From: Candidatus Latescibacterota bacterium
Lineage (GTDB): Bacteria; Latescibacterota; UBA2968; UBA8231
Direction of reading: 5' to 3'
NCBI GenBank assembly: GCA_965215195.1
Contig: CBDCDC010000002.1
Span: 1,216,001-1,280,000, forward strand
DNA: 64,000 bases
The translations under genes were made by a program, and so were the position numbers. Within the stretch, counting starts at the first letter, position 1. Every line of letters begins with the position of its first letter. Under the pieces are notes generated by a model. That model was given only the letters and a program-made list of their open reading frames with translations, was not told where the DNA came from and did not search any database. Below are positions 32,020 through 61,049 of this stretch, one piece after another.

Positions 32020-32200
32020 AAGTGTGAAAGTAGGCCCCAGCCGCTAAGGAGCGGAATTGACGGGCAGCTTTTTCGCCCACTCACAAGAGGAGATCAACCA
32101 TGACCCTGCACCCCTTAGCCGAGATCAGATACCGTCGGCCCGAGGAATGGTCCCCGTGGGCATAGCCTCGTTCGACGCCGCGAAGAAATGCACCATCCAC

Positions 32201-36669: not shown

Positions 36670-36695
36670 CTACCGGAGAAAGGGAGTTAGCTCTG

Positions 36696-43276: not shown

Positions 43277-44386
43277 ATGAAAAATTTGCTGCTGTTCATC
43301 GTGGTTTTCGGCCCTGTGGTGCTGTTGGCCGGGTGCGGCGATGATCCACCTAAACGCCGAGTGGAGATCACCCCTCCGGTGGCCGAACTCACGTTCGACG
43401 AGGCGTTAGTCAAGGATAGGGAAATCCACTTCCAAATGCCCGAGGGTATCGTTTTGGGCACGATCGGGGACCTCGTGGTCGATTCCAAGGGCAACCTCAT
43501 CATCTTAGATTTTGCCCAAGGGACGGTTTTCCTAGCCGATGCCGAAGGCAACTATCTGCGGCAGATCGGAGCGCGGGGAGGGGCTGAGGGCGAGTACCTT
43601 TCTATTATCGAGGTACTGCTAGCCCCAAATGACGATCTCTATACTTGGAGTATGGGAGAAGGCCTCAAGTACATGGTCTTTTCCGGCGGCTCTTATGAGT
43701 TTAAGAGAGAGGTTCCAGATCCTAATTCCCAGTACATCGATCATCTCGTGGTCTCCGCCGGCGGCCACATTTATGCCTCGCAAGTGGATTTGCGAATGGA
43801 CGGTATCCACGCCCTGTTCCGCTTTGACGACCACTTCAAGGTGATCGGCAACCTGTATCCGGTCGAAGACCAAAGGACCGCGACGGCCCTGCACCGCTTC
43901 CACAACACCATCCTCACCCCCAAGACCGGCGGTGGCTTCTACTTCATGTATCCGACCACCTACGAGATTCACCAGTACAGCGAGCAGGGCGAGTTGGAAC
44001 AGACCCTGTTTAGCACCTACCAGTCCAAGCACCGGGACGGCATCAAGCCCTTTCCCGCCGACTTAGACCCGTATGGTTGGAACCCCAAAATCGAGGCGTG
44101 GTTCGCGGAGCACATTGTCCGTCACCGACTTTTCGAATGCGGTTCCGACTTGCTGGTACTTGTGCAATACAGGCGGGAGGTTGGCAACAAGTACGAGTAC
44201 TATCTAAACTTCTTGTACAAGGACGGCCATTCGGTGGCCGATGGGATTCGTGTGCCCGCCAAGCACATACCGCTGACGGTCAACGGCTCTGAGTTGTACT
44301 TTGTGGTTGAGAGTGAGTTCAATGAAGCGACGGGCGAGGCGGACGATCCGCACATAGCCGTCTATCGGCTCAAGTCGGCTAGGTAG
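43277..44386 (+). CDS. 6-bladed beta-propeller lipoprotein 2
   Basis: AAGGAGG RBS, lipobox LLAGC, NHL-like VDSKGNLIILD and YLRQIGARGGAEGEY. Confidence 0.88.
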   Translation: MKNLLLFIVVFGPVVLLAGCGDDPPKRRVEITPPVAELTFDEALVKDREIHFQMPEGIVLGTIGDLVVDSKGNLIILDFAQGTVFLADAEGNYLRQIGARGGAEGEYLSIIEVLLAPNDDLYTWSMGEGLKYMVFSGGSYEFKREVPDPNSQYIDHLVVSAGGHIYASQVDLRMDGIHALFRFDDHFKVIGNLYPVEDQRTATALHRFHNTILTPKTGGGFYFMYPTTYEIHQYSEQGELEQTLFSTYQSKHRDGIKPFPADLDPYGWNPKIEAWFAEHIVRHRLFECGSDLLVLVQYRREVGNKYEYYLNFLYKDGHSVADGIRVPAKHIPLTVNGSELYFVVESEFNEATGEADDPHIAVYRLKSAR

Positions 44387-44511: not shown

Positions 44512-45498
44512 ATGAACAAACGGATGCTTTTTATCGCAATGGCTGGCATAGGGCTGCTTGGGGTTGACCCGGCCAACGCCGAGGCCGCAGCGGAACGAGG
44601 GGCCGACGAGCGCTTCACCGGCAAGGAGCAGGTCGTTGCGCTGCCGGGCGGTACCCAGATGACGTTTGTGTGGATTGAGCCGGGGACGTTTCAGATGGGA
44701 GCGCAGCTTCCAGAAGACGAGTCGCTGAAAGAGTTAGAAAGAACCGTGCGTTACGTTGGTTCCCTGCCGGTGCATGAGGTGGAGATTAGTGCGGGGTTCT
44801 GGTTGAGTAAGTATGTGGTTACGCAGGAGCAGTGGGAAGCAATAATGGGAACCACGCCTTGGCGCGACGAAGACAACATCGACCGAGAGTTGGTGCAGTC
44901 GAATCCGGCGCATCCGGCCGTGTATATTTCTTGGCACGACGCCCAAGCGTTGATACACCAGCTCAATAGCGCCGCCGGGGAGGACGTGTATCGGTTGCCG
45001 ACCGAGGCCGAGTGGGAGTATGCCTGCCGGGCAGGCACTTCGACCCTGTGGTCGTTTGGCAACGAAGAGGGCGCGTTCTCTACCTTGTGGACGTATCACG
45101 CGGATAAGGGTTCGCTCGCCCACTATGCGTGGTATCGGAACAATACGTTGGGTAGGAATGAGGAGTATGCTCATGCGGTGGGACAGCATCGTCCGAATGC
45201 GTGGGGCTTACATGATATGCACGGCAATGTGTGGGAGTGGGTACAGGACTGGTATGACATCGACTATTACAAGCATTCGCCGCGGGTGGATCCTTTAGGC
45301 CCTCCATCCGGCTCTTTAGGCTCTGGTCCTAACTCTTTACGCTCTAAGATGAGGGACGACGCTACCGACTCTTTACGCGTCATGCGGGGGGGGGACTTTA
45401 TCACCCCTGTCATATACACACAATCGGCGTACCGCATATTCAAAGAGCCTTACGAAGGTTACGCTACTATTAGTGTACGCCTTTTGAAGATGCGTTGA
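44512..45498 (+). CDS. FGE-sulfatase (SUMF1) domain protein, secreted
   Basis: Signal peptide; PGTFQMG, YRLPTEAEWEYACRAG, PNAWGLHDMHGNVWEW, RVMRGG. Confidence 0.92.
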   Translation: MNKRMLFIAMAGIGLLGVDPANAEAAAERGADERFTGKEQVVALPGGTQMTFVWIEPGTFQMGAQLPEDESLKELERTVRYVGSLPVHEVEISAGFWLSKYVVTQEQWEAIMGTTPWRDEDNIDRELVQSNPAHPAVYISWHDAQALIHQLNSAAGEDVYRLPTEAEWEYACRAGTSTLWSFGNEEGAFSTLWTYHADKGSLAHYAWYRNNTLGRNEEYAHAVGQHRPNAWGLHDMHGNVWEWVQDWYDIDYYKHSPRVDPLGPPSGSLGSGPNSLRSKMRDDATDSLRVMRGGDFITPVIYTQSAYRIFKEPYEGYATISVRLLKMR

Positions 45499-45670: not shown

Positions 45671-46306
45671 ATGAATTCGCTAGCAAAAGCGCTTCTGGTG
45701 CTGTCTTTCGGCCTCGGCTCGGTCGCCTTAGCCCTGCACCAAGACAACGTCGACAGACGCGACGAGTTGGAGACCCTCAACGAGCGGCTGGAACACTTGG
45801 AGACCGTCCAATGGAACTACGAGGTCAATGCCGCCCTCAAGGAGAAGCTACACCGCAAGCTGATCGAATCGGTGGACTTGGGCCGATTCGCCAAGTTCGA
45901 CGAGTCAGCCGCCGGGGATGGCCAGCCGTTTGTCGTCGTCGTATCGACGAGCCGGACATGTGGAGCATGCCTGTTTACCCAACTCGCTCAGTGGAGGCAG
46001 GCGATGGCGCACAGGGGCATCTCCCACGGCAAGCTACTGCTGGTCGTAGGCGACGCCAACGAGCACATCAAGCACCAAATCGCCATAAAGAGCAAAGTGG
46101 ACATCGTGCCGTTTGCCTTCACCTTCGTGGCCGAGCGAGAGCTCCAAGCACTGCTGTTTCAGTCCGAGGCCCGGTCGTCGGTGCCGGTCTCGTTTGTCGT
46201 GGACGACGCCTTTCATGTCCTCAACTGGCACTATAGCGACAAAGGAGACGAAGAAGCGACAGAGCAATGTATCCAAGATTGGCTGGAACAGTACTTCACT
46301 TCGTAA
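45671..46306 (+). CDS. Exported thioredoxin-fold (CGAC) protein, copy 2
   Basis: Close paralog of 41047-41682. Confidence 0.75.
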   Translation: MNSLAKALLVLSFGLGSVALALHQDNVDRRDELETLNERLEHLETVQWNYEVNAALKEKLHRKLIESVDLGRFAKFDESAAGDGQPFVVVVSTSRTCGACLFTQLAQWRQAMAHRGISHGKLLLVVGDANEHIKHQIAIKSKVDIVPFAFTFVAERELQALLFQSEARSSVPVSFVVDDAFHVLNWHYSDKGDEEATEQCIQDWLEQYFTS

Positions 46307-46326: not shown

Positions 46327-48093
46327 TTAGTTTCCCGCTGCGTCGTCTTCTACGGCTTGGTAGGCGACCAGCTCCCAGCCGTGAAACACAACGGCCAAGC
46401 CAATATGCCGCACCGACGGGGAGCGGTGCGGCAAGGACGAATCCGCCAAGTAGCCGCGCACCTGAAGCACGGCCTCCTGCACCTTGTCCGCCACAACGGA
46501 TTCGTCGAGGGTTTCGCTTCGTTTCAGGTACTTCAATTCCAACACATAGCCGAACCGCACGTCAGGGTACTGGGCGACAAACGGCTCCAAGTACAAATCC
46601 GCGTACCCCTTGTTCAGTTCATACTCCGAGTGCAGTAGAAAGTGGTTCACCATACTCAAGTGGGCGGCGACAAAGCCGTGGATCACCTTCTCGCCATCCA
46701 TGTAGTCGCGGATGCCGGTTTGCTCGGCGAGGGCATCGCGCAAAAAATCGAGAGGCGGCTGCCAAGCGCCACCGTAGGCCATCTGGCGCATCAGGCGGGA
46801 GAAGGTGTACACATCGACGGAGAACACCCCCACATCGTCGTAGGCATCGCGCAGGTAGCCGTACATCAGCCGCTTGACCGTTTGATTGGGAATGCCCAGC
46901 CGAGGCACCCCGTGCGCCACGGCGCGAATGCTGAGCAGGCCGAAGTAATACAGCAGGGACAGGAAGTTTTCGCGTTGGTCTAACTGTTCTAAGGGAAAGC
47001 TGACTTGGATAGTGCTTTCGGCGGTCTGCTCGCCGATGATGTGGCGCAGCAGGTCGAAGTTGCCGTTGAATTGCCGGTTGACCGTCAGCAGGTGGCGCAG
47101 CTTGCCGTAGTCGATGCGCACGTTGGTGTCGATCAACTCCCGCGGTCCCCGTTTGTTTGGCACGGATTTGTGTAAAAAGTAGAGGACCATGTCCGTGTTG
47201 TAGAGGTCACCCTCGATCTCCTCGGCGAAGCGATAGCCGTTGTACCACTCGCGCATCACCTCCAGCGCGGCTTCGACATCCTGATTGAACACGCCGTAAT
47301 CACGGTATAGCTCCAGCACCTCTCGCACCTCGGCCTCGGTGAAGCCGAGCATGTCGTTGAACTCTGGTTCCAAGCTGATGTTGCTGCCGATGTTAAAGCC
47401 GCTGGTGACGTCGTCCATGGTGATCGGCGACACCCCGGTGATGAACAACCGCTCCAAGCCGCCGCCGCTCTGCTCCGCGCCGACCTTGAGCGTGGCGAAG
47501 AAATTGCGATAAAAGCCGCCGCCGTGGGTGAAGGACTGGTACGCGGCCTCGCCGTGATAAGCCAGCACGGTGTTGGCGAAGTTGTCGTACTCGTCGATGA
47601 GCACGCATAGCCGAATGCCGTGGTCGCCAGCGTACAGGAACAGCTCGTTGAGCTGCCCAGTGACCGAGTCCGACGCACGGATGTATCGCCTCGCGGCCTC
47701 GGGAAACAAATCCGCATTGCGCTCCAGCGCATACCGGACCACCAGTTGACAATACTCTTCAAAGTGATGTTCGAGGGTTTCCAGCGCGTTTTTGAACGCC
47801 GAAAAGTTGAAACGCAGGACGACGTAGCGATGGCGGTTTTCGGTCGGCTGCTGCCCCAAGTCCGTACCGCCGAAGACGGTCTCGAATTCGTCGGCGCGGT
47901 TGCGGTCGTAGTAGTTCTCTAGCAAGGACACCCAGCAGGTCTTGCCAAAGCGTCGGGGACGAATGAGAAAGACGTAGCGTTCGTCTTCTAAGGCGTGGAC
48001 GAAGCGGGTCTTATCGACGTAGAGGCGGTTTTCCAAGCGGATGGCCCGAAAATCAGCCCAACCGTAGGGAATGCGGGGGTAGGATGCGGCCAT
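46327..48093 (-). CDS. AAA-ATPase-like / PD-(D/E)XK nuclease protein, copy 2
   Basis: Same motifs as copy 1; AGGAG RBS before MAASYPRIPYG. Confidence 0.9.
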   Translation of the reverse strand: MAASYPRIPYGWADFRAIRLENRLYVDKTRFVHALEDERYVFLIRPRRFGKTCWVSLLENYYDRNRADEFETVFGGTDLGQQPTENRHRYVVLRFNFSAFKNALETLEHHFEEYCQLVVRYALERNADLFPEAARRYIRASDSVTGQLNELFLYAGDHGIRLCVLIDEYDNFANTVLAYHGEAAYQSFTHGGGFYRNFFATLKVGAEQSGGGLERLFITGVSPITMDDVTSGFNIGSNISLEPEFNDMLGFTEAEVREVLELYRDYGVFNQDVEAALEVMREWYNGYRFAEEIEGDLYNTDMVLYFLHKSVPNKRGPRELIDTNVRIDYGKLRHLLTVNRQFNGNFDLLRHIIGEQTAESTIQVSFPLEQLDQRENFLSLLYYFGLLSIRAVAHGVPRLGIPNQTVKRLMYGYLRDAYDDVGVFSVDVYTFSRLMRQMAYGGAWQPPLDFLRDALAEQTGIRDYMDGEKVIHGFVAAHLSMVNHFLLHSEYELNKGYADLYLEPFVAQYPDVRFGYVLELKYLKRSETLDESVVADKVQEAVLQVRGYLADSSLPHRSPSVRHIGLAVVFHGWELVAYQAVEDDAAGN

Positions 48094-48195
48094 GGCGACT
48101 CCTAAGACGAATGAACGAGACTGAGCGTAACGATTGAGCAAAACAAGCGCAACGTACGCACGATTGGCCACATCGGCGATTCCCTTTTAACGCAC

Positions 48196-48388: not shown

Positions 48389-48797
48389 TATATAGTAGGT
48401 GAGCACGAAAGTAAGCCGTTGTTGGTCTCAGACGCTACGGCGCAGAGGCCGACGGGCAGGCTTTCCATTCACCCCATAAGAGGAGGGAATAATGAACCGC
48501 TTTATCAACATCCGCTCTCGCCTGCTTGGAGAAGGTCGGCTTTCGTGCCGCGCTGGTAGAGCCACCGTCAAGGTCGAGAAGACCTGTAGCCATGACCCTG
48601 CACAAACCCGTGATCTACGGCTTGGCCATTGAAGCCGCGCAGGCATTTGCCGTTGTCGGCTGCTTTCCTTCTCGCGCTATGACGACACCTTTATCGTCAC
48701 TGCGTAGGACTATCCGTCAGGAAGTCCTTTCGAGACGCTCTTGGCGTCACCATTTGGTTCAATAGAACCAGTCACTTATTACTCAAGGAGTATATCC

Positions 48798-48938
48798 ATG
48801 ACCGCTCTGCACAAACCCGAACGCGCCACCTACGACCAAGCCGTTGAGGCCCAGCGGGAATTCAACAAGATCGAGATCATTGAGGATCCTCCTGGGCTTC
48901 ATTGCACTGGAATCGGCTCCCTCATCTGCTGCTGCTAA
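48798..48938 (+). CDS. Cys-rich precursor peptide 3: MTALHKPERATYDQAVEAQ-REFNKIEIIEDPPGLHCTGIGSLICCC (46 aa)
   Basis: AAGGAG RBS; C-terminal part of track ORF 48741-48938. Confidence 0.88.
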   Translation: MTALHKPERATYDQAVEAQREFNKIEIIEDPPGLHCTGIGSLICCC

Positions 48939-49099
48939 GGGGGCTCTGCTCTTCCCACTTGGTTCGATAGATCCGGACTCCTCACTTGAGGGGGTCTGAA
49001 CAATCGACCCAGCCGTAGATGAGACGAGTGGACCGAGGCCCATGGGCTTCGGTCCACTCCGTCGGACTTCAACGCCAACTCTCATCAGGAGGAATAGTT

Positions 49100-50281
49100 A
49101 TGAACAAGCGGACCCCTTTCATCGGGCTCGTCGGTGCCATGGTGCTGTTGGCCGGTTGCAGCGACGACCCACCCGCTGGCCCGCGTCGAGTGGAGATCGC
49201 CCCCCCAGCCGCCGACCTAACCTTCGACGAAGCCTTTGTCAAGGACCGGGACATCCACTTACACCTGCCGGAGGATGTCGCTTTAGGCGGGATTGGCTAC
49301 ACCTTGGTGGATGCCAAGGGCGATCTGATTGTTGGGGACCATATCCAAAAGACGGTTTTTCTCACCGATGCTGAAGGCCGTTACCTGCGGCAAATTGGAG
49401 CGCGGGGGGGAGGCGAAGGCGAGTACTTTTATATCGGGAGGCCGCGGTTAGCCCCCAACGGCGATCTCTATTTTCACAGCTTTGGAGCAAGCGATAAGTA
49501 CCTTTTCTTTGCGAGCGACTCCTATGCCTTTAAGCAGGAGGTGCCGGACCCGAACCCGCAACTGATTGACCAGATGGTGCTCACCGAAGGCGGCCATTGG
49601 TACGGCTCGCAGGTAGATGTCATAGATATAGGTGCTGTTGAGGTGCGAGAGGATGGCCAGTACGCGCTGTTCCGCTTCGACGACCACTTCAATAAAGTCG
49701 TTGACCTGTATCCGGTCGAAGACAAACGAACCGGGCGGGCGTTGAATCGCTACCACAACACCGTGCTCACACCCAAGCGGGGGGGCGGCTTCTACTTCAT
49801 CTATCCGACCACCTACGAAATCCACCAATACAGCGAGCAGGGCACGTTAGAACAGACTTGGTTCAGCGAGTACAAGTCCAAGCATCGGGATGGGATCAAG
49901 CCTTTCCCCGCCGACTTGAATCCGGTCAATTGGACCCCTCGGCACGGCGAGTGGTTTGCTGAGCACATTGTCCGTTCCCGCCTCTATGAATTCGGTCCCG
50001 ACCTGCTGGTGCTTACCCAATACCGGTCGGTGTTCAAGGGCAAGGTCCGCGGCAAGCCGGAATACTATTTGAACCTCTTTTACAAGGACGGCTATTCGGC
50101 CGCCGACGGCATTAGATTACCCGCAGATCATAGGATGCTGACGGTCGCCGGCACGGAGTGGTATTTCGCCATCGAGGGTGCGTTTGACGAGGCGACCGGC
50201 GAGACGAGCGATCCGCACATAGCCGTCTATCGGCTCAATGACCGCGAAGGGGCCGGCAAGAGAGCGTTCAGCCGCTCGTAG
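49100..50281 (+). CDS. 6-bladed beta-propeller lipoprotein 3
   Basis: AGGAGG RBS, lipobox LLAGC, paralog of 43277-44386. Confidence 0.88.
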   Translation: MNKRTPFIGLVGAMVLLAGCSDDPPAGPRRVEIAPPAADLTFDEAFVKDRDIHLHLPEDVALGGIGYTLVDAKGDLIVGDHIQKTVFLTDAEGRYLRQIGARGGGEGEYFYIGRPRLAPNGDLYFHSFGASDKYLFFASDSYAFKQEVPDPNPQLIDQMVLTEGGHWYGSQVDVIDIGAVEVREDGQYALFRFDDHFNKVVDLYPVEDKRTGRALNRYHNTVLTPKRGGGFYFIYPTTYEIHQYSEQGTLEQTWFSEYKSKHRDGIKPFPADLNPVNWTPRHGEWFAEHIVRSRLYEFGPDLLVLTQYRSVFKGKVRGKPEYYLNLFYKDGYSAADGIRLPADHRMLTVAGTEWYFAIEGAFDEATGETSDPHIAVYRLNDREGAGKRAFSRS

Positions 50282-50316: not shown

Positions 50317-50958
50317 ATGAATGCCACTAAGCTAGCAAAAGTGCTTCTGCTGTTGTCCCTCGGCCTCGGCTCGGTCGCCTTGGCCCTCCACCAAGACAAC
50401 ACCGACAGACGCGACGAGTTGGGCGCACTTAATCAAAGGCTGAAACACTTGGAAACCGTCCAATGGAACTACGAGATCAACGCCGCCCTCAAGGAGAAAC
50501 TACACCGCAAGCTGATCCAATCGGTGGACTTAGGCCGATTCGCCAAGTTCGATGAGTCGGCTGCCGGGGACGGTAAACCCTTTGTCGTCGTCGTATCGAC
50601 GAGTCGGACGTGTGGAGCATGCCTGTTTACCCAACTTGACCAGTGGAAACAGGCTATGACTCAAAGGGGCGTCTCCCACGGCAAGCTGCTGCTGGTCCTA
50701 GGCGACGCCAACGAGCCCCTCAAGCACCAAATCGCCCTCAAGCACAAGGTCGGCATCGTGCCCTTCGCCTTCACCTTCGTGGCTGAGCAGCAACTCGATG
50801 CGCTGCTGTTCCAGTCCGATGCCCGGTCGTCGGTGCCGGTCTCGTTTGTCGTGGACGACGCCTTTCATGTCCTCAACTGGCACTATAGCGACAAAGGAGA
50901 CGAAGAAGCGACAGAGCAATGTATCCAAGATTGGCTGGACCGGTACTTCACCTCGTAA
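50317..50958 (+). CDS. Exported thioredoxin-fold (CGAC) protein, copy 3
   Basis: Close paralog of 41047-41682. Confidence 0.75.
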   Translation: MNATKLAKVLLLLSLGLGSVALALHQDNTDRRDELGALNQRLKHLETVQWNYEINAALKEKLHRKLIQSVDLGRFAKFDESAAGDGKPFVVVVSTSRTCGACLFTQLDQWKQAMTQRGVSHGKLLLVLGDANEPLKHQIALKHKVGIVPFAFTFVAEQQLDALLFQSDARSSVPVSFVVDDAFHVLNWHYSDKGDEEATEQCIQDWLDRYFTS

Positions 50959-51285: not shown

Positions 51286-51498
51286 TACGTCCCTTTTGAC
51301 GCACTACGTCCCTTTTGACGCACTTTCTCTAACCTGTTGTAAATAAAGCCAGATAGAAGCAATATAGAACATTAGGTGCGTCGAAAGGGTGCAGTTGAAG
51401 CGCGATTCGGCGTTTGGTTTGCGATGCCCCAATTTTTTGTAACTCTCTGTATAACAATTAGTTATGGTCTTGTAGATCAGCTTGGCACGGAATCTGCT
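51286..51498 (+). promoter_or_regulatory. sigma54 promoter module 6 (distal enhancer tandemly duplicated)
   Basis: GCACTACGTCCCTTTTGAC x2; TGCGTCGAAAGGGTGCA at 51377; TGGCACGGAATCTGCT at 51483-51498. Confidence 0.88.
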
Positions 51499-51707
51499 AA
51501 GTGTAAAAGTAGGCCCTAGCCGCTAAGGAGCGGAATTGACGGGCAGATTTTCCACACTCATAAGAGGAGGTCAACCATGACCCTGCACCCCTTAGTCCAG
51601 ATCAGGTATATCTTCGGCCGGAGGAATGGCTCCTACAGGCGTAGCCTCTCTCAACGCCGAGAAGAGACGTAGCCGTACCCCTGCACAAAACCAAAGAGAG
51701 GTGAACG

Positions 51708-52424
51708 ATGAAAAACATGGCGCGGAACATCTCCCTGCTCGTCAATGCGTTCCTCCTGCTACTCATTGCCACTGGCACCCTGTGGGCACTGAAAGAGCTG
51801 CACCGGCAAGACCCGACCGAGGCCGAGCGGCTGGTGAAGGAGAAGACCTACTTCAAGGACTACCTCAACAGCAGCGTCCAAGCTTCGACCAAGCTGGGCC
51901 TGAAATTCCCCGTCATTGAGATGACAGATATCAAAGGCCGGCCTTTGAGCACGGATTTCTCCAAGACCCAAAAGGGAGGAATCGTCGTCGTGCTCAGCCA
52001 ACTGGCGTGCCAGCCCTGCCTCAAGCCGCAGATGCAGATCCTGCAGCACATCTACGAGCGTCTCGCCGATCCGGAGGCGATGCCCATTTACTGCATCGCC
52101 AGAATGAGCGAGCGGAAGTTTTCGGACTATGTGCGGACGTTCCAGATCACTTTTCCGGTTGCGTCGGACACGACCGGGTACTTCAACGAGACGCCTTTTG
52201 GCGAACCGACCCCGGCCGTATTTGTAATTGACGAGAACAACACGGTCGTCAACGTCCATATCCCCGTGCAGGAGAAGCCGCACCTTTCGGTCATTTTCTA
52301 CAACGAGTTGAAGCCTTGGTTCGACTTGGCCAAGCCGCTCGCTTTCAAGTTCAAAGGCGTGAAGTACTACGACGTCATCACCAACAAGGCCGATTTGAGC
52401 TCGGTCAAGCACTTGCTCTACTGA
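51708..52424 (+). CDS. Membrane-anchored redoxin/TlpA-like protein (CQPC)
   Basis: N-terminal TM, FPVIEMTDIKG, ACQPC, ITFPVASD, TPAVFVIDENN. Confidence 0.78.
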   Translation: MKNMARNISLLVNAFLLLLIATGTLWALKELHRQDPTEAERLVKEKTYFKDYLNSSVQASTKLGLKFPVIEMTDIKGRPLSTDFSKTQKGGIVVVLSQLACQPCLKPQMQILQHIYERLADPEAMPIYCIARMSERKFSDYVRTFQITFPVASDTTGYFNETPFGEPTPAVFVIDENNTVVNVHIPVQEKPHLSVIFYNELKPWFDLAKPLAFKFKGVKYYDVITNKADLSSVKHLLY

Positions 52425-52455
52425 CCGGCCACCTATCGCAAGGGAGGACAACGAG

Positions 52456-54186
52456 ATGATAGTCAAGGAATTTGCCATGCGCTTCGCCCGGTACATCAAA
52501 CCGTACTGGTGGCAAAGTTCAATCGTATTCGCCTTCATGGTCTTGGCAACGGCCAGTTCGCTCGCCTTCCCCTATATCCTGATGGTCCTCATCGACGAGG
52601 CCCTGCCCGACGAGGACTACTATTTATTGGGCATCCTGCTGGCCACGCTATTCGGTATCATCGTCTTGAACATAATCAGCGTTTTTATTGCCGAGTATCT
52701 GTATCGCTGGGTCGGCAACCTCGTCGTGTTTGAGATGCGGAGCGAGTTGTTCAGCCACCTGCTGCGCCTGCCGCTAAGTTTCTTCAAACGCAACAAGACC
52801 GGGGATATCGCTCACCGGCTCAACAACGATGTGCAGATCGTCCAGAAAACGCTCACTTCCGGCGTACTGAAGCTCATCAACAGCGTGCTGACTTTGGTCA
52901 GTTTGGGGGCGGTGCTGATATGGCTAGACGCTCCCCTTTTCTTTGGCCTGAGCCTGCTCGTGCCCTGCTTCATCGTGAACCTCAAGTACTTCCAGCCCAA
53001 AGTAGGCAAGGTGGCCGAGGCAACCCAACACAAGACTTCGGATATACTGGGGTTTTTTATCGAGCGTTTCGACAACATCAAACTCGTCCAGTCGTACAAC
53101 ACATACCGACACGAGAGCGACAAGTTGGGCCGACGACAGAGTGAGTTGTTCGATCTGGAAATGCGTAGCACTGCGTTGAATCTTTCCGCTGGTTCCATCG
53201 CGTCCTTTATCATGTCCTTGGCTCCTGTTGTCATCCTCGGTTGGGGAGGGCATCAAGTCATGCAGGGCGCACTCGGCTTGGGGGCGCTAATCGCCTTTTT
53301 CCAATACTTCATGCGCATTTTCGGACCCTTGGAGAGCCTGAATCAACTGTACATAGATTGCGTCCGGGCGTCGGTTTCTCTGCGGCGAATTGTGGAATTC
53401 ATGGACGTACCGGCGGAGGTTGACGCAGAGCCGGAGCGGGCCAAACCCTTCTCGTTCAAGAATAAGATAGTGTTCAAAGGCGTGGATTTTGCCTACAACG
53501 GGCACCCTGTACTCAGCCGTTTTGATTTGGAGATTGAAAAGGGCAAGACCTACGCGCTCGTCGGGGCGAGCGGTTGCGGCAAAAGCACGGTTGTCGATCT
53601 GTTGTGCCGTTTTTACCAGCCGCAAAAAGGCGAGATCGCCATAGACGACGCGCCTTGCCGGGCCTTTGGTCTGGGCAAGTACCGGGACCGCATCGGCTTG
53701 GTGTCGCAAGAAGCGCAACTCTTCCGCGATTCGGTGCTCGAAAACATACGCTATGGCCGGTTGGAAAGTTCCAAAGAAGAGATCGAACGCGCGGCCGAGG
53801 AACTCGATATCAACGGTGCAGCCATCCACGCGTCCGAGGACTCCTTGGCGACGGTATGCGACTCCAAAGCCAACCTGTCGGGTGGACAGAAACAGCGGAT
53901 AGCCCTAGCGAGGGCCGTGCTGAAAAACCCCGAGATCATCGTACTGGACGAGGCGACTTCAGCTCTCGACTCGGAGAGCGAGGAGAAGCTGTTGCGCCGG
54001 CTCAAGGGCCAAGCCGACGACAAGACGGTCATCATCGTCAGCCACCGGCTCAGTGCCGTTAGGGAGGTCGATGAGATCGTCTGCATGGACGAGGGGAAAA
54101 TTGTCGAGAAAGGCACTCATGCCGAATTGATGGAGAAAAAAGGCCACTATTGGGAACTGTTCAAAACCCAGATTGCGAACAATTAA
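52456..54186 (+). CDS. ABC exporter, fused permease-ATPase (no C39 peptidase domain)
   Basis: TM domain, GASGCGKST, LSGGQKQRIALARA, LDEATSALD, SHRLS. Confidence 0.95.
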   Translation: MIVKEFAMRFARYIKPYWWQSSIVFAFMVLATASSLAFPYILMVLIDEALPDEDYYLLGILLATLFGIIVLNIISVFIAEYLYRWVGNLVVFEMRSELFSHLLRLPLSFFKRNKTGDIAHRLNNDVQIVQKTLTSGVLKLINSVLTLVSLGAVLIWLDAPLFFGLSLLVPCFIVNLKYFQPKVGKVAEATQHKTSDILGFFIERFDNIKLVQSYNTYRHESDKLGRRQSELFDLEMRSTALNLSAGSIASFIMSLAPVVILGWGGHQVMQGALGLGALIAFFQYFMRIFGPLESLNQLYIDCVRASVSLRRIVEFMDVPAEVDAEPERAKPFSFKNKIVFKGVDFAYNGHPVLSRFDLEIEKGKTYALVGASGCGKSTVVDLLCRFYQPQKGEIAIDDAPCRAFGLGKYRDRIGLVSQEAQLFRDSVLENIRYGRLESSKEEIERAAEELDINGAAIHASEDSLATVCDSKANLSGGQKQRIALARAVLKNPEIIVLDEATSALDSESEEKLLRRLKGQADDKTVIIVSHRLSAVREVDEIVCMDEGKIVEKGTHAELMEKKGHYWELFKTQIANN

Positions 54187-54202
54187 AAAAAGGGAGACCA
54201 GG

Positions 54203-56140
54203 ATGAATACCAATGAGAAGTTGCAGACGCTCGACTTTACCCGTTTGACCGGACGCGGGGTCAAGGTCGCGGTAGTTGACAGCGGTATTGAACCCAATCA
54301 TCCCAAGATCGGCCCTATTGCCGGCGGAGTTGGTTTATATGCGCTTGCCGAGGGCGGTATCCAACGCGAGGACGATTTCTCTGACCGGGCCGGTCACGGT
54401 ACGGCCTGCGCGGGCATTATCCGCAAACTGGCCCCGGAAGCCGAACTCTACGGGGTACGCGTTTTTGACGAGTCTCTGACCACGGATGGGCAGTCGCTGG
54501 TCGCAGCCGTTGCTTGGGCCATAGAAGAGGGCATGGACGTAGTCAATCTCAGTTTAGGGACGATTGACCCCGCGTACAAGAGGCCCTTGGCGGAGATATG
54601 CCGCAAGGCCGTGGAAGCCAATCTGATTCTGGTGGGTTCCCAGCACAACGAGGGCATGGAAAGCTATCCAGCGGAATTAGCCGACGTAATCGGCGTCACT
54701 TGGGGAAAAATCTACGACCGCTACGGGTACTACTACCGGCGCGGGCAGGCCATTGAGTGCGTGGCGCGGGGCGATCAGCAGCGTCTGTGCTGGCTGGACG
54801 GAGGAGAGACGATCACCGGCGGAACCAGTTTTGCCGCGCCCCACATAGCGGGGATTGTCGCCTTAATCCGCCAACGCTTTCCCGGAGCGGGGTTGACCCA
54901 AGTACGGGAGATTTTGGCGGCAAATGCCTTAGAGTCGGAGGGGCCTGTCGCGTCGGATATCGCTGTCGAACGGCCGGGTTTTCCCAGCTACGAGTGGATC
55001 GACCGGGCGGCCCTGTATCCGTACAACAAGGAAATGCACGCGCTGGTGCGCCACGCGAAGCATTTGCATTTCACCATCGCTGGCATCGCCGATCCGGTCG
55101 GCAAAGGTCTGGTCGGCAAGGACGCCGGCGAGGCTATTGGCGTTGAGCCGTTAGGTGTGCGCATTGTCCCCAAACTCGAGGACGCGCTACGGGGAGCCGA
55201 TACCCTCGTGTTGGGGTACGTCGATCAGCTATCTCAGTTGAGCAAAAAGGACTTGCTGCGCGAGGCCATACAGACGGCGTTGGAGCGGGGGCTCAATGTG
55301 TTCAGCTTCCTAGCGGTTGATCCAGAGACCTACGCCGACTTGTACGATTTGGCGCAGAGCAAGGGGTTGCGTTTGGAGTTCCCGGATTTCGATTTCGCCG
55401 ATGTCCAAAGGTGCCTTGCAGCCCAAGGCTCCGAGCGCACCGTGGATGTGCCGGTGGTCGGGGTTTTCGGCACGAGCTCCCAACAGGGCAAGTTCACCTT
55501 GCAACTCGCATTGCGGCAAAAGCTGATTGAGCAAGGATACACAGTTGGTCAACTGGGCACCGAGCACCATTCGGCCCTGTTCGGGATGGATTTTTCCTTC
55601 CCCATGGGCTACGCCGCGCCCAGAGACCTGCCGTTGCAATACTACGGTCCGTACTTAGACCACAAGATGCGCGAGATTAACGCGGCGAAAAAACCGGATA
55701 TCATCTTAGTCGGCTGTCAGTCGGGCACCATACCCTATGATGTCGCCAACCACAACTCCCATACCGAGCCGTCGATCCACTTCCTGTTGGGGACCAAACC
55801 AGACGCCTGCATTTTAGTGGTCAACAGCACGGATTCGGATGCGTATATCCAAGACACCATGGATGGCATACGCATATTGGGCAAAGCCCCGGTCGTATTG
55901 CTGGCGATGAGCGACAAGGAGAAACACGCCCGGTCGGTCTATGGCAAAACTTGGGTTTCCTCTCGTCAGATGAGCGAGGGTGAGATAAAGGGCCACTTGG
56001 AGCGCTTAGAGGCTTCGTTTGGCTTGCCAGTGGTGGCGATTGTTGCCGAGGAGGGGCAGCAGCGAATGGTCGATATTGTCGTCAACCATTTTGCCGCAGA
56101 GAGTCGGCCAGCGTCCGAAGAGATTAAAAAGGCCGGGTAG
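54203..56140 (+). CDS. S8 (subtilisin-like) peptidase fused to DUF1611-like P-loop domain
   Basis: Triad VAVVDSGI / GHGTACAG / GTSFAAPH; C-terminal PVVGVFGTSSQQGKFTLQL..GTE..PDIILVGCQS; no signal peptide. Confidence 0.85.
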   Translation: MNTNEKLQTLDFTRLTGRGVKVAVVDSGIEPNHPKIGPIAGGVGLYALAEGGIQREDDFSDRAGHGTACAGIIRKLAPEAELYGVRVFDESLTTDGQSLVAAVAWAIEEGMDVVNLSLGTIDPAYKRPLAEICRKAVEANLILVGSQHNEGMESYPAELADVIGVTWGKIYDRYGYYYRRGQAIECVARGDQQRLCWLDGGETITGGTSFAAPHIAGIVALIRQRFPGAGLTQVREILAANALESEGPVASDIAVERPGFPSYEWIDRAALYPYNKEMHALVRHAKHLHFTIAGIADPVGKGLVGKDAGEAIGVEPLGVRIVPKLEDALRGADTLVLGYVDQLSQLSKKDLLREAIQTALERGLNVFSFLAVDPETYADLYDLAQSKGLRLEFPDFDFADVQRCLAAQGSERTVDVPVVGVFGTSSQQGKFTLQLALRQKLIEQGYTVGQLGTEHHSALFGMDFSFPMGYAAPRDLPLQYYGPYLDHKMREINAAKKPDIILVGCQSGTIPYDVANHNSHTEPSIHFLLGTKPDACILVVNSTDSDAYIQDTMDGIRILGKAPVVLLAMSDKEKHARSVYGKTWVSSRQMSEGEIKGHLERLEASFGLPVVAIVAEEGQQRMVDIVVNHFAAESRPASEEIKKAG

Positions 56141-56482: not shown

Positions 56483-56562
56483 ATGGATAGAAGAAGGCTG
56501 GAACACCGCATTAAGGAGAGGGTCGTCAAGGCACTAGAACTCGACATTGCACCTAGCGATAT
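56483..56562 (+). pseudogene. ACP N-terminal remnant
   Basis: GGAGG RBS; MDRRRLEHRIKERVVKALELDIAPSDI parallels the ACP at 36397; interrupted by IS630-like fragment. Confidence 0.65.
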
Positions 56563-56770
56563 AGCAATCCTAAATCATTTAAGAGCTAATGTATATTGCA
56601 TCAATTTTGGAAAATGGAAGTATTTTTTTCGTCGAATGCCCTTTACGAACAGGTCTTTGATCGGTTCAAAACAGGTCGTCGACAGCGCATGGGTACGAAC
56701 AAAGGTCTTGCCTTGTAACCAGATGTCCTCGACCGGATTTTCTTGCGGGGTATACGGGGCCAATCGCGTA
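56563..56770 (-). mobile_element. IS630-family transposase C-terminal remnant
   Basis: APYTPQENPVEDIWLQGK matches the IS630 PxYSPELNPIE.W motif. Confidence 0.75.
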
Positions 56771-57121: not shown

Positions 57122-58882
57122 TTAGTGTCCCGCCGCATCGTCCACCGCTTGATACGCAACCATCTCCCAGCCGTGAAACACCACCGCCAAGCCAATATGC
57201 CGCACCGACGGGTGGCGGCGGCGCAGGGACGGGTCTGCCAAATAGCCGCGCACCTGAAGCACGGCCTCCTGCACCTTGTCCGCCACAACGGATTCGTCGA
57301 GCGACTCGCTTCGTTTCACATACTTCAGTTCCAACACATAGCCGAAACCCACGTCAGGGTATTGGGCGAGGAACGGCTCCAAATACAAATCCGCGTACCC
57401 CTTGTTCAGTTCGTACTCCGAGTGCAGTAGAAACTGATCCACCAGGCTCAAGTGGGCGGCGACAAAACCGTGAATCACCTTCTCGCCATCCATGTAGTCG
57501 CGGATGCCGGTTTGCTCGGCGAGGGCATCGCGCAAAAAATCCAAGGCCGGCCGCCAAGCGCCGTCGTAGGCCATCTGGCGCATCAGACGGGAGAAGGTGT
57601 ACCCATCGACGGAGAACACGTCCACATCGTCGTAGGCATCGCGCAGGTAGCCGTACATTAGCCGCTTGACCGTTTGATTGGGAATGCCCAGCCGGGGCAC
57701 TCCGTGCGCCACGGCGCGAATGCTGAGCAGGCCGAAGTAATACAGCAGGGACAGGAAGTTTTCGCGTTGGTCTAACTGTTCTAGCGGAAAACTGATTTGA
57801 ATGTCACTCTCGGCGGTCTGCTCGCCGATGATGTGGCGCAGCAGGTCGAAGTTGCCGTTGAGTTGGCGGTTGACCGTCAGCAGGTGGCGCAACTTGCCGT
57901 AGTCGATGCGCACGTTGGTGTCGAGCAATTCCCGCGGTCCCCGTTTGTTCGGCATGGATTTGTGTAAAAAGTAGAGGACCATGTCGGTGTTGTAGAGGTC
58001 GCCCTCGGCCTCATCGGCGAAGCGATAGCCGTTGTACCACTCGCGCATCACCGCCAGCACGGCTTCGACATCCTGATTGAACACGCCGCAGTCGCGGTAT
58101 AGCTCCAGCACCTCCCGCACCTCGGCCTCGGTGAAGCCGAGCATGTTGTTGAACTCTGGTTCCAAGCTGATGTTGCTGCCGATATTGAAGCCGCTGGTGA
58201 CGTCGTCCATGGTAATCGGCGACACGCCGGTGATGAACAACCGCTCCAAGCCGCCGCTTCGCCCGGCTCCGGCCTTCAGCACGGCAAAAAAATTGCGATA
58301 GAAACCACCACCGTGGGTGAAGGACTGGTAGGCTTCGGCCCCGCGATGCGCCAGCACGGTGTTGGCAAAATTGTCGTACTCGTCGATGAGCACATACAGC
58401 GGAATGCCATGGTCACCCGCGTACAGAAACAGCGCGGCGAGCTTGGCGTCAATGGAGGGCGGCGAGAGAATGCGTTGTCTCGCCTCTTGGGGAAACAGAT
58501 CTCGATTGCGCCTGAGTGCGTGGTCGAGTTCCAAGTGACAGTACATCTCAAAGCGTTCCCGCAGGGTTTCTAAGGTGTCATCGAACGCCGAAAAGTCAAA
58601 GCGCAGGACGACGTAGCGATGGCGGTTTTCCGTCGGCTGCCGCCCCAAATACGTGCCGCCGAAGATAGCCTCAAATTCATCGGCGCGGGTGCGGTCGTAG
58701 TAGTTTTCCAGCAGGGACACCCAGCAGGACTTGCCAAAGCGACGCGGACGAATCAGAAAGACGTAGCGTTCCTCTTCTAAGGCGTGGACAAAGCGGGTCT
58801 TATCGACGTAGAGGCGGTTTTCCAAGCGGATGGCGCGGAAATCAGCCCAACCGTAGGGAATGCGCGGGTAGGATGCGGCCAT
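57122..58882 (-). CDS. AAA-ATPase-like / PD-(D/E)XK nuclease protein, copy 3
   Basis: RPRRFGKS, LIDEYD, GYADL..ELKY; 586 aa. Confidence 0.9.
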   Translation of the reverse strand: MAASYPRIPYGWADFRAIRLENRLYVDKTRFVHALEEERYVFLIRPRRFGKSCWVSLLENYYDRTRADEFEAIFGGTYLGRQPTENRHRYVVLRFDFSAFDDTLETLRERFEMYCHLELDHALRRNRDLFPQEARQRILSPPSIDAKLAALFLYAGDHGIPLYVLIDEYDNFANTVLAHRGAEAYQSFTHGGGFYRNFFAVLKAGAGRSGGLERLFITGVSPITMDDVTSGFNIGSNISLEPEFNNMLGFTEAEVREVLELYRDCGVFNQDVEAVLAVMREWYNGYRFADEAEGDLYNTDMVLYFLHKSMPNKRGPRELLDTNVRIDYGKLRHLLTVNRQLNGNFDLLRHIIGEQTAESDIQISFPLEQLDQRENFLSLLYYFGLLSIRAVAHGVPRLGIPNQTVKRLMYGYLRDAYDDVDVFSVDGYTFSRLMRQMAYDGAWRPALDFLRDALAEQTGIRDYMDGEKVIHGFVAAHLSLVDQFLLHSEYELNKGYADLYLEPFLAQYPDVGFGYVLELKYVKRSESLDESVVADKVQEAVLQVRGYLADPSLRRRHPSVRHIGLAVVFHGWEMVAYQAVDDAAGH

Positions 58883-59177: not shown

Positions 59178-59590
59178 TATATAGTAGGTGAGCACGAAAG
59201 TAAGCCGTTGTTGGTCTCAGACGCTACGGCGCAGAGACCGACGGGCAGGCTTTCCATCCACCCCATAAGAGGAGGGAACAATGAACCGCTTTTATCAACA
59301 TCCGCTCTCGCCTGCTTGGACAACGGCTCGCTCTCGTGCTGCGCTGGTAGAGCCATCGTCAAAGTCGAGAAGGTATGTAGCCATGAGCCTGCACAAGTCC
59401 GTGATCTACGGCCCGGCCATGCGAAGCCGCGCAGGCATTTGCCGCTGTCGGCTGCTGTTCCTTCTCGCGCCATGACAACGCCTTTACCGGCATCACTTAG
59501 GGCTACCCATCAGGAGGCCCTGTCGCGACGCCCTTGGCGTCACCACTTGGTTCGATAGAACCACCTACTTATTACTCAAGGAGCATAGCT

Positions 59591-59722
59591 ATGATCGCTC
59601 TGCACAAGCCCGAACGCGCCACCTACGGCCAAGCCGTCGAGGCCCAGTATGAATACCAGAACATGGTATGCGACGCATATGATGCTAGGTGCTGGGATCC
59701 GGGGCACAGAAGGTGCTGCTAG
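59591..59722 (+). CDS. Cys-rich precursor peptide 4: MIALHKPERATYGQAVEAQ-YEYQNMVCDAYDARCWDPGHRRCC (43 aa)
   Basis: AAGGAG RBS; C-terminal part of track ORF 59534-59722. Confidence 0.88.
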   Translation: MIALHKPERATYGQAVEAQYEYQNMVCDAYDARCWDPGHRRCC

Positions 59723-59933
59723 GGAGAACAAACTTCGCGACGGCCCGGCTGTCACCACTTGGTTCGATAGAACCTCTCATCCTTGACTAAGCGGGCCGTT
59801 GACTCTGGCGAGTAGGCCGTGGGTCTCAGCGAACACGGTCTACTCCGCCGGCCTTCGGACTCTGAAAGATCGTAGTTCCTTTAGTCCATTCATTGGTATG
59901 GGTCAGACACCAACCATTCACAGGGAGGATGCT

Positions 59934-61049
59934 ATGAACAAGCGGATACATTTTATCGCGGGCGTCGGCACTATGGCGCTATGCGCCGGGTGCAGCGACG
60001 TGCCAGAAGGCCGGATAGAGATTACCCCGCCAGCGGCCGATCTTGCCTTCGACGAGACGTTCGTCAAGGACCGGGACATTCATCTCAACATGCCCGAAGG
60101 CGTCGTTTTGGGCAGAATCGGCCACATGGTAGTCGATTCCAAAGGCAATCTCATCGTTAGGGACCCTATTCAGGATATAGTTTTCCAGACCGATGCTGAG
60201 GGCCATTACTTGCGGCAGATCGGGGCACGAGGGGGAGCAGAGGGCGAGTACTTCATGGTCCTCAAGATACTGCTGGCCCCAAACGACGATCTCTATATCC
60301 ACAGTGCAGGGGAAGGCATGAAGTATCTAGTCTTTTCCGGCGACTCATATACGTTCAAGCGGGAGGCTCCAGACCCTAACCCTGCGTACGTTGACCATGT
60401 CATATTCACCGCAGGAGGCAACATATACGCCTCGGAAGTGGACAGCGAATACGCCCTGTCCCGCCTCGACGACCACTTCAATAAGGTGGACCGCATGTAC
60501 CCTGTCCAAGACACGCGGACAGGACAGGCGCTGAACCGCTTCCACAACACCGTCCTTACTCCCAAGAGGGGAGGTGGCTTCTACTTTATGTATCCGACCT
60601 CCTACGAGATTTACCAATACAGCGAGCAGGGCGAGTTGGAACAGACCTTGTTTAGCGACTACCGCTCCAAGCATCGGGACGGGATCAAACCCTTTCCCCC
60701 CAACTTGAACCCGTACGATTGGAATCCCAAAATTGAAGCGTGGTTCGCCGAGCACATCGTCCGCAGCCAGCTTTTTGAATGCGATCCCGACTTGCTGATC
60801 CTCAAGCAATACAGGCGGGAGGTGGGCGGCGAGTGGAAATACTATCTAAACATCCTAGACAAGGACGGCCATTCGATCGCCGATGGGATCAGCGTACCCG
60901 CCAAGCACACACCGCTGACGGTTGACGGCCGTGAGTTGTATTTCGAGGTAGAGGGCGCGTTCGACGAGGAGACCGGCAAGGTAGGCGATCCGTATGTAGC
61001 TGTCTATCGGCTCGCCAATGATCGCAAAGTAGCCTTTAGCCGCTTGTAG
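59934..61049 (+). CDS. 6-bladed beta-propeller lipoprotein 4
   Basis: GGAGG RBS, lipobox LCAGC, paralog of the other three. Confidence 0.88.
   Translation: MNKRIHFIAGVGTMALCAGCSDVPEGRIEITPPAADLAFDETFVKDRDIHLNMPEGVVLGRIGHMVVDSKGNLIVRDPIQDIVFQTDAEGHYLRQIGARGGAEGEYFMVLKILLAPNDDLYIHSAGEGMKYLVFSGDSYTFKREAPDPNPAYVDHVIFTAGGNIYASEVDSEYALSRLDDHFNKVDRMYPVQDTRTGQALNRFHNTVLTPKRGGGFYFMYPTSYEIYQYSEQGELEQTLFSDYRSKHRDGIKPFPPNLNPYDWNPKIEAWFAEHIVRSQLFECDPDLLILKQYRREVGGEWKYYLNILDKDGHSIADGISVPAKHTPLTVDGRELYFEVEGAFDEETGKVGDPYVAVYRLANDRKVAFSRL

Follow-up and report, generated by a model that had tools for sequence, protein, structure and literature searches.

A conserved operon encoding an S8 protease fused to a DUF1611 module in a candidate peptide-processing locus of Latescibacterota

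We analyzed a 64,000-nucleotide stretch of a Candidatus Latescibacterota genome (assembly GCA_965215195.1, contig CBDCDC010000002.1, positions 1,216,001 to 1,280,000), called the window here, and in it an operon at 51708–56140 that encodes a redoxin, an ATP-binding cassette (ABC) exporter, and an S8 subtilase fused to a DUF1611 module. The operon is real and well conserved, and it is not unique to the window. It is a fused variant, free of radical S-adenosylmethionine (SAM) enzymes, of a gene cassette known from annotation only. Most likely it is the shared processing and export unit of a sigma54-controlled, multi-cassette locus that makes small peptides with four cysteines. We favor a reading, with a probability of about 0.5, in which leader removal is coupled to carrier-protein-dependent acyl transfer, ABC export, and periplasmic thiol handling.

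Composition of the operon

Three co-directional open reading frames (ORFs) fill positions 51708–56140 on the forward strand, with intergenic gaps of 32 and 17 nucleotides. The first (51708–52424) encodes a membrane-anchored redoxin of 238 residues with a thioredoxin fold and likeness to TlpA and ResA. It passed the Pfam cut-offs for Redoxin (31.3 bits, cut-off 26.6) and AhpC-TSA (27.3 bits, cut-off 26) and scored 34.3 bits with the NCBIfam model for ResA, which is under that model's cut-off. Its translation opens with a hydrophobic anchor and reads CQPC at residues 101–104, and counterparts of 238 residues with CQPC were found in two related loci (L004 and L015).

The second gene (52456–54186, 576 residues) encodes an ABC exporter with a transmembrane domain (ABC_membrane, 149.6 bits in Pfam) and an ATPase (ABC_tran, 113.8 bits). 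Residues 23–570 match positions 161–707 of the 708-position bacteriocin exporter model TIGR01193. A C39 peptidase domain is absent from the Pfam matches and from the TIGR01193 alignment, and the protein opens with its membrane domain. Because alignments to peptidase-containing exporter models begin at about model position 160, we read this protein as an exporter without the C39 domain. For the three operon proteins, Pfam gave no match to a domain of the GNAT (GCN5-related N-acetyltransferase) superfamily at E values up to 0.01.

The ORF of the third gene, which encodes the fusion, spans 54173–56140 (655 residues). Homologs start at the ATG at 54203, which gives a protein of 645 residues, and residue numbers are counted from that ATG unless stated otherwise. 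The S8 subtilase domain (54203–54985) scored 98.2 bits with Peptidase_S8 (PF00082, cut-off 21.8) over residues 27–253 of the 655-residue ORF. The remaining module (54986–56140) consists of a Rossmann-like half and a P-loop half and passed the gathering scores of both DUF1611_N (PF17396, 39.1 bits versus 22.6) and DUF1611 (PF07755, 60.3 bits versus 25), in agreement with the DUF1611-like label that a sequence-only reading of the operon had given it. The triad of Asp26, His65, and Ser209 is invariant in 29 of 29 aligned homologs (30%–91% identity). Among the same 29 homologs, eight of ten positions of the P-loop-like motif GTSSQQGKFT (423–432) are invariant and the other two nearly so; six of eight residues of YPYNKEMH (272–279) are also invariant, as are Thr453-Glu454 and Gln506-Ser-Gly. 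Over a range of 30%–93% identity, the DUF1611 module holds about 45 invariant residues, the P-loop and YPYNKEMH included. The catalytic Asp lies only 26 residues from the start, and for this reason the fusion was read as cytoplasmic, without a signal peptide or pro-domain.

Comparison with curated models placed both halves near known families. The best NCBIfam model for the S8 half is QhpE (NF049966), at 142.4 bits and short of the cut-off of 165; a paralog (L009) scores 167.1 bits with the same model, above the cut-off. TIGR04066 matched residues 278–641 (model positions 2–360 of 361) with 131.2 bits, and in a genome-wide profile search it gave 133.2 bits, with the fusion as the single TIGR04066-like gene of the genome. 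A link to TIGR04066 of clostridial clusters had been put forward; the likeness is real but sub-threshold, at 131 bits versus a cut-off of 200. The DgcN model (NF041892) gave a partial match of 29 bits against a cut-off of 480.

Association with a family of precursor peptides

Four genes for precursor peptides with an LHKPER-type leader were identified on the forward strand from the ORF list and by alignment. They lie at 39488–39628 (with four Cys and an end in CC plus one residue), 42890–43030, 48798–48938 (the closest to the operon), and 59591–59722 (downstream of the operon). All four have in common an invariant N-terminal stretch (LHKPER...QAVEAQ) and a leader of about 19 residues. Their cores are variable, contain four Cys, end in CC followed by zero or one residue, and diverge sharply between cassettes. 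A search of the 6.13-Mb genome with the leader gave four matches only, all in the window, and the genome has one fusion. Counting only loci with a full 10-kb upstream flank, the same leader occurs within 10 kb upstream of the orthologous fusion in three of three (L004, L006, and L007), and L004 holds two precursors of this leader family. The proposal that a maturation and export operon serves this leader family was therefore upheld, both by the pairing of the sole four leaders with the sole fusion of the genome and by the co-occurrence of leader and fusion homologs in three further loci. Membership of the precursors in TIGR04065, which had also been put forward, is unsupported because NCBIfam matched no family to the precursors or small ORFs at E values up to 10.

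A second family of small ORFs (MTLHK start, IEAAQAFA) lies upstream of the main precursor, between it and each promoter, with two intact copies (39281–39454 and 48592–48765) and two broken ones (42677–42775 and 59383–59475) whose frame differs after about 15 codons. This family may be translated or may belong to a conserved leader RNA.

The operon and the precursor cassettes also have a promoter type in common. A pattern search located a sigma54-type -24/-12 element, TGGCACGGAATCTGCT, at 51483–51498 on the forward strand, inside a 73-nucleotide repeat. The element reads TGGCACG-N5-TGCT, with GG and GC elements at -24/-12 spacing, and is a predicted sigma54-dependent promoter. The pattern TGGCACGNNNNNTGCW matched seven times in the window versus 0.08 expected, and the motif positions are 24634, 32004, 39060, 42458, 48373, 51483, and 59162. 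A 17-nucleotide version of the promoter has eight matches in the 6.13-Mb genome, seven of them within the window. The eighth, on contig 2 at 2461238 (L065 9239–9255, minus strand), was rejected as a member of the locus, as it heads two unrelated secreted Asp-rich repeat proteins (L065 8255–9064 and 7102–8229, minus strand). Of five copies of the 73-nucleotide promoter repeat (family D17), four precede small ORFs and then a DUF5128 propeller gene, and the fifth heads the operon. The first reading frame past the operon promoter is a 31-codon ORF that starts MTLH (51577–51672, forward strand); its counterpart in L004 (7252–7353) has 33 codons, sits in the same place, and differs by an in-frame change in length. 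Between 50900 and 57200, sigma70-like promoters and intrinsic terminators were no commoner than in shuffles. No activator protein for the sigma54-type promoters was identified. With the promoter pattern, the triad alignment, and the Pfam assignments, the operon first described from its sequence (a CQPC redoxin, a peptidase-less ABC exporter, and a cytoplasmic subtilase with a D/H/S triad fused to a P-loop domain, behind a sigma54-type promoter) is confirmed.

Distribution and gene neighborhoods of the fusion

With the fusion as query, 625 proteins were retrieved at E values up to 1e-5 among 8000 candidates scored. The best 120 of the 625 combine S8 and DUF1611, mostly with 94%–98% query coverage and 55%–97% identity; four are shorter (54%–82%). 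Taking one genome per species, there are 61 fusion loci, nearly all in Latescibacterota assemblies and six of them in one chromosome. Loci elsewhere belong to Gemmatimonadota, Bacteroidetes (36% identity), Erysipelotrichaceae (31%), Clostridia, and Kryptoniota. By this distribution, the host of the window is almost certainly a member of Latescibacterota. The fusion noticed in the window is one member of a large existing family rather than a local oddity.

Gene contexts were examined for 10 of the 61 loci (L004, L009, L014, L015, L018, L031, L054, and L060, and partly L061 and L064). In the ortholog L004 (91% identity), the order redoxin-ABC-fusion is kept, as is the short MTLH ORF upstream. 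The paralogs in L015 and L018 (56%–57%) lie in one and the same string of genes: a four-Cys small ORF, a propeller, a protein of 238–241 residues (CQPC read in L015), ABC, rhodanese (directly upstream of the fusion in L015), the fusion, an acyl carrier protein (ACP), an unknown protein, a BtrH_N/DUF4872 protein, HlyD, and a resistance-nodulation-division (RND) gene. In L009, L014, and L031, ABC and fusion are followed by ACP and a BtrH-like gene, and between ABC and fusion stand a redoxin and Yip1 (L009 and L014) or an Rce1-like protein (L031). Four loci (L009, L014, L015, and L018) repeat the set of ABC, redoxin or rhodanese, and MauE; in L009, MauE lies near the fusion. A protein of Kryptoniota (L061 10007–12295) has the same S8 domain (40% identity, residues 8–356) fused to ABC_membrane and ABC_tran, not to DUF1611. 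By its domains, this protein is an S8 counterpart of the C39-ABC bacteriocin exporters.

The sequence-only reading had also suggested that the locus is a variant lacking radical SAM enzymes and had called for a search of the rest of the genome. The host genome has 16 Radical_SAM domains, the nearest 118 kb from the window, and its best TIGR04068 match (91 bits) is about 800 kb away. Around 14 full-length fusion copies in five other Latescibacterota chromosomes, no Radical_SAM domain occurs within 19 kb. The suggestion therefore stands for the locus but not for the fusion as such, since the same fusion occurs with a radical SAM maturase in other phyla. In L054 (Bacteroidetes), the fusion has a PapB/CcpM-like radical SAM/SPASM enzyme two genes upstream and is directly followed by an ACP; in L060 (Erysipelotrichaceae), genes for radical SAM/SPASM, ACP, and a Cys peptide of 39 residues stand in a row with the fusion and then two ABC genes. 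The radical-SAM-free state marks the examined Latescibacterota loci and the one Gemmatimonadota locus, and the fused form is common to several phyla.

A carrier protein and a BtrH-like protein accompany the fusion

An ACP gene with the DS serine present lies at 36397–36669 on the forward strand (PF00550, 30.1 bits in the genome search). The protein scored 31–42 bits with ACP models, TIGR04069 not among the matches. An ACP had been named as a partner of TIGR04066 proteins, and the window does contain one; it had been left unconnected, and the specific family named (TIGR04069) was not matched. The window ACP is 44%–47% identical to ACPs adjoining paralogous fusions, and the carrier Ser is invariant in six of six sequences and in a possible remnant. 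This remnant of the 5' part of an ACP gene, which is uncertain, lies directly past the fusion (56483–56570, forward strand): ORF 56483–56848 matches the N-terminal helix of fusion-linked ACPs over its first ~24 residues and diverges beyond them. L004 has no ACP directly after its fusion, and alignments of the post-fusion DNA with L004 and with the ACP gene were uninformative. Across ten genomes, a PP-binding gene lies at most 300 bp downstream of 14 of 18 full-length fusions and 2.2 kb upstream of one. The remaining three have the ACP upstream on the same strand, at 18 kb in the window, 10.6 kb in L004, and 8.6 kb in L006.

The window ACP gene is followed on the forward strand by genes for a rhodanese-domain protein (36666–37142, Pfam Rhodanese, 58.2 bits), a MauE/DoxX membrane protein (37097–37567, Pfam MauE, 102.3 bits), and a divergent BtrH_N-family protein of 351 residues (37569–38624). 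The last matched no Pfam family directly at E values up to 0.001. It is 40% identical to a protein of L009 (13407–14426), and its distant homologs (28%–37% identity, E values of 1e-28 to 1e-52) carry PF14399 and are named BtrH_N by some sources. The BtrH_N assignment was made because these intermediate homologs carry PF14399; by direct BLASTP, a weak local match (E = 0.025) was all that linked it to Pfam-positive BtrH_N proteins. Like the ACP, this gene had not been connected to the operon before. In four genomes, 12 of 12 fusions have a BtrH_N-family gene, detected with the Pfam model or a profile of the window subfamily, no farther than 3.3 kb away, and L060 has a likely BtrH-like member (hhalign probability 72%, E = 3.4e-5). 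In an alignment of 16 BtrH-like sequences, inspected for a papain-like Cys/His catalytic pair, there is no invariant Cys, and the His before GYD is replaced in two. Selenocysteine at an in-frame TGA of BtrH-like matches was considered and rejected, as in the two of six loci whose coordinates were compared with the ORF ends (L009 and L031) the match ends on or past the terminal stop. ACP and BtrH-like genes also stand side by side on contig 1 of another genome (G002, 720595–721915), outside the retrieved fusion loci, and may be a further or partial system.

Predicted structure of the fusion

An AlphaFold2 model of the full-length fusion had a predicted local distance difference test (pLDDT) score of 82.7. 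In Foldseek it matched the DUF1611 protein 2g0t as well as subtilisins (target-normalised TM-score of ~0.7, 30% identity). A separate model of the C-terminal module reached a pLDDT of 85.4 and a predicted TM-score (pTM) of 0.84, and aligned over its full length with 2g0t (VIA-align Z 30.2, root-mean-square deviation [rmsd] 2.9, 313 aligned residues) and 2obn (Z 29.2). It also aligned with 7xrj, a structure titled N-acetyltransferase DgcN (Z 24.6, rmsd 4.1, 305 residues, 21% identity). The matches ranked after these, from dethiobiotin synthetase (Z 15.5) downward, extend over one half of the module only. In a sequence search of solved structures, 2g0t alone fell below an E value of 0.1 (2.7e-7), with three weaker matches at 0.12–0.6. 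A language-model look-up grouped the DUF1611 module with Bacillota TIGR04066 and DUF1611 clusters. The idea that the P-loop domain modifies the N-terminus freed by the protease, raised earlier, is made plausible by the fold likeness of the modelled module to DgcN (Z 24.6).

A predicted complex of fusion and precursor scored 0.50 (0.46, 0.52, and 0.50 in separate runs), and the best control scored 0.01. The mark for such predictions is reached by 58 of 80 solved complexes and by 2 of 110 mismatched pairs; scores that reach the mark and do not exceed 0.60 come from only 7 of the 80 solved complexes, yet from both mismatches. The runs had at least 22% of contacts in common and a partner pLDDT of at least 44. 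This prediction lends weak support to binding of the precursor by the fusion.

Other features of the locus

The region from ~36 to 61 kb of the window is a mosaic of repeated cassettes (repeat families D1–D8). The cassette nearest upstream of the operon encodes, on the forward strand, a six-bladed DUF5128 propeller lipoprotein (49019–50281) and an anchored CxxC protein of 213 residues (50317–50958), identified by Pfam DUF5128 and by a lipobox and anchor in the translations. Other DUF5128 propeller copies lie at 39966–41030, 43277–44386, and 59799–61049, and other copies of the CxxC protein, recognized from the repeat families, at 41047–41682 and 45671–46306. In three cassettes an anchored CxxC protein of ~212 residues follows the propeller; the fourth (59.1–61.0 kb) is without this gene. 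Upstream, RND efflux units at 24670–29009 and 32377–35535 stand behind the same promoter type. The promoter at 32004 is followed by a 21-codon ORF starting MTLHP (32100–32165) and then by the AcrB-type pump of the second unit (32377–35535), which consists of two ORFs of 499 and 552 residues that match the N- and C-terminal halves of the Pfam model and is split or frameshifted.

A gene with AAA-ATPase_like and PDDEXK_9 domains occurs in four minus-strand copies between cassettes (29018–30883, 35477–36217 [partial], 46327–48171, and 57122–58882), and an IS1-like fragment is found at 41841–42299. These elements suggest that the cassettes were multiplied by recombination or mobile DNA. In one cassette the usual neighbor is replaced by a protein like formylglycine-generating enzyme (FGE-sulfatase) and PvdO (44512–45498, 147 bits in Pfam), which could act on Cys of one precursor. 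A 46-nucleotide repeat with a short GC-rich inverted repeat occurs at 39420, 39626, 42824, 48731, 50969, 59524, and 59736, where it follows the small ORFs and, once, a cassette. It could serve as an attenuator or as a site where RNA is processed; at gathering thresholds, Rfam gave no match across 30000–64000.

Comparison with known systems

Clusters with TIGR04068, TIGR04066, TIGR04069, a subtilase, and an ABC protein have been listed for Roseburia intestinalis L1-82 (PMC4573289); in Paenibacillus polymyxa #23, the SacP23 cluster has the same TIGR04066/TIGR04069/subtilase/ABC set beside a CcpM-type radical SAM enzyme (TIGR04068) (PMC10731318). Neither of these two genome-mining papers assayed the role of TIGR04066, and one guesses "immunity" (PMC4573289, PMC10731318). 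The window resembles these cassettes in its S8 protease, DUF1611/TIGR04066-type protein, ACP-type protein, ABC exporter, and small Cys-rich peptides. It differs in that a single polypeptide unites the protease with the TIGR04066-like protein, there is no radical SAM maturase nearby, the genes for the ACP and the BtrH-like protein are 18 kb upstream, and redoxin, MauE, rhodanese, and propeller genes are added. A literature search that left supplementary cluster tables aside found no functional study for DUF1611/PF07755/COG3367/PF17396/TIGR04066-type proteins and no role for the fusion.

For the protease, the closest parallel is QhpE, a cytoplasmic subtilisin-like protease described as removing the 28-residue leader of a cross-linked small subunit, in a single-turnover manner, before export by the ABC protein QhpF (PMC7876137). 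Both systems have a small cytoplasmic subtilisin-like protease without a pro-domain, a peptidase-less ABC pump, and a Cys-rich polypeptide; the window protein differs in its score (142 bits, below 165) and in the fusion to a DUF1611 module. The window Pfam assignments include no qhpABCDG genes, radical SAM QhpD, or dehydrogenase subunits, and there is no radical SAM gene within 118 kb. The best-fitting QhpE model, the analogy with QhpF, and the S8-ABC fusion of Kryptoniota support, by comparison, an S8 clade of leader proteases tied to export.

DgcN, which resembles the DUF1611 module, is a stand-alone enzyme of D-glutamate catabolism (PMC10845958). The likeness (NF041892, 7xrj) lies in the two-domain architecture and in the fold (Z 24.6). 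DgcN uses acetyl-CoA. BtrH_N is a domain of BtrH, the ACP:aminoglycoside acyltransferase of butirosin biosynthesis (PMC10318531). As with BtrI and BtrH, an ACP gene is paired here with a BtrH_N-family gene; the likely acceptor would be a ribosomal peptide and not an aminoglycoside, no Cys is invariant in the subfamily found here, and no BtrJ/K/O/V equivalents were seen. In lipolanthines, goadvionins, and lipoavitides, the N-terminus of a ribosomal peptide with post-translational modifications is acylated by GNAT enzymes after leader removal (PMC13647313). The logic proposed here would be equal, with leader proteolysis and then N-terminal acylation, and the candidate enzyme would be the DUF1611 module, not a GNAT protein. 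MauD and MauE are needed for disulfide formation in methylamine dehydrogenase. The window likewise has a MauE-family membrane protein and a thioredoxin-fold redoxin near a small Cys-rich polypeptide that would be exported; it differs in that the MauD model gave only 25 bits, in the paralog L009 only, and in that there are no mauA or mauB genes.

A model for the operon and its alternatives

In the reading that we favor, precursors would be made from the cassette promoters and bound by the fusion in the cytoplasm, where the QhpE-like S8 domain would cut off the leader. The DgcN-like DUF1611 module, together with the ACP and perhaps the BtrH-like protein, would transfer an acyl or aminoacyl group from the phosphopantetheine arm to an amine of the core, most simply the freed N-terminus. 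The peptidase-less ABC exporter would move the product over the inner membrane into the periplasm, where the four cysteines would be handled by MauE, rhodanese, and the anchored CQPC redoxin. The RND pumps behind the same promoter type may transport the peptide outward or shield the cell that makes it, and the propeller and CxxC proteins of each cassette may be cognate immunity or binding partners.

Several points weigh against this reading. What we observed are the domains, the invariant residues, the conserved gene partnerships, the lack of radical SAM genes, and the exclusive genome-level pairing of fusion and leader family; we infer every chemical step, namely cleavage and its site, the acyl transfer with its donor, disulfide formation, and the sequence of events. 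The ACP gene lies 8.6–18 kb upstream, not next to the fusion, in the window and its closest orthologs. The BtrH-like protein may not be a catalytic acyltransferase, because it has no invariant Cys and its His varies, and no acyl-ACP loading enzyme or phosphopantetheinyl transferase turned up, no search having been aimed at either. The TIGR04066, QhpE, and DgcN models all score the fusion under their curated cut-offs, and the substrate of DgcN is a free amino acid, neither a peptide nor a carrier protein. The complex prediction is weak and yields no interface, and the gene contexts cover only 10 of the 61 related loci.

The fold of the DUF1611 module could also be taken to mean that it is an ATP-using ligase that loads the ACP, with the BtrH_N-like protein as the enzyme that transfers the group to the peptide. 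BtrJ plays such a loading role for the carrier BtrI in butirosin synthesis. Taken separately, the P-loop half of the module resembles acyl-phosphate-forming enzymes of the SIMIBI class (MinD/BioD type), with structural matches to dethiobiotin synthetase (Z 15.5), MinD/ParA-type ATPases, and the CTP synthetase domain (Z 14.1); the Rossmann half matches amine dehydrogenases and dihydrodipicolinate reductase (Z 13–14). The Walker-A-like motif is invariant and the BtrH_N-family gene is a constant neighbor, which speaks for this scheme. Over the whole module, however, the nearest enzyme with a named activity is the acetyltransferase, at a Z of 24.6 that is well above the ~15 of the ligases, and the window BtrH-like protein is without an invariant Cys. 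We consider a ligase unlikely.

A simpler scheme dispenses with acyl chemistry, so that the DUF1611 module and the ACP-like protein would recognize, gate, or chaperone the precursor and the product would be an unmodified disulfide-bonded peptide. It would suit an operon with no radical SAM or other obvious core-modifying enzyme, four-Cys cores in a locus with plentiful redoxins, and a BtrH-like protein with no invariant nucleophile. The ~45 invariant residues of the DUF1611 module (P-loop and YPYNKEMH among them) and the invariant carrier Ser speak against it, because they argue for catalysis and for a phosphopantetheine arm, and we regard this scheme as distinctly unlikely.

The peptides could instead be small subunits or cofactor-bearing partners of the periplasmic propellers, matured and exported as in quinohemoprotein amine or methylamine dehydrogenase, two enzymes in which a propeller subunit is joined by a small cross-linked one. 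In three of the four cassettes, a precursor goes together with a propeller lipoprotein and a CxxC protein, and the locus has a QhpE-like protease, a QhpF-like exporter, MauE, and a MauD-like redoxin. Against this, Trp is not conserved in the cores, and no heme subunit or equivalents of QhpD and QhpG lie nearby. The cores diversify sharply between cassettes, as in bacteriocin and immunity sets, and RND or MacB efflux genes recur nearby, which fits secretion. A role as enzyme subunits is improbable on this evidence. That the operon has nothing to do with the peptides, and is for example a general unit for thiol or redox export with a housekeeping protease, is very improbable: the ABC protein does match CydC/CydD and MsbA models, all under their cut-offs, but operon and precursor cassettes have the locus-specific promoter in common, fusion and leader family are each other's sole partner at the genome level, and leader and operon are syntenic in orthologs.

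Significance

The TIGR04066/ACP-related/subtilase/ABC cassette has appeared in genome-mining papers for more than 10 years, with a DUF1611-type protein that had no assigned role. What is added here is that protease and DUF1611 module form one protein in a large family, that this protein is paired almost constantly with a carrier protein and a BtrH-like protein, that the gene set occurs in the absence of the radical SAM enzyme that was taken to define it, and that the module has the predicted fold of a known N-acetyltransferase. A vague "maturation protein" thereby becomes a testable claim, that leader removal is coupled to acyl transfer from a carrier protein. If this claim holds, it would add a new enzyme class for peptide acylation and give access to a large and so far unexplored store of peptides in an uncultured phylum.

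More broadly, and only tentatively, Latescibacterota may possess a radical-SAM-independent class of ribosomal peptides, often with several paralogous loci per genome, in which one polypeptide couples leader proteolysis to ACP-dependent N-terminal acylation by way of a DgcN-like DUF1611 module instead of a GNAT enzyme. If true, TIGR04066/DUF1611 proteins would gain their first function in the making of peptide natural products, and ribosomal lipopeptides or aminoacyl-capped peptides would be reached by a new route.

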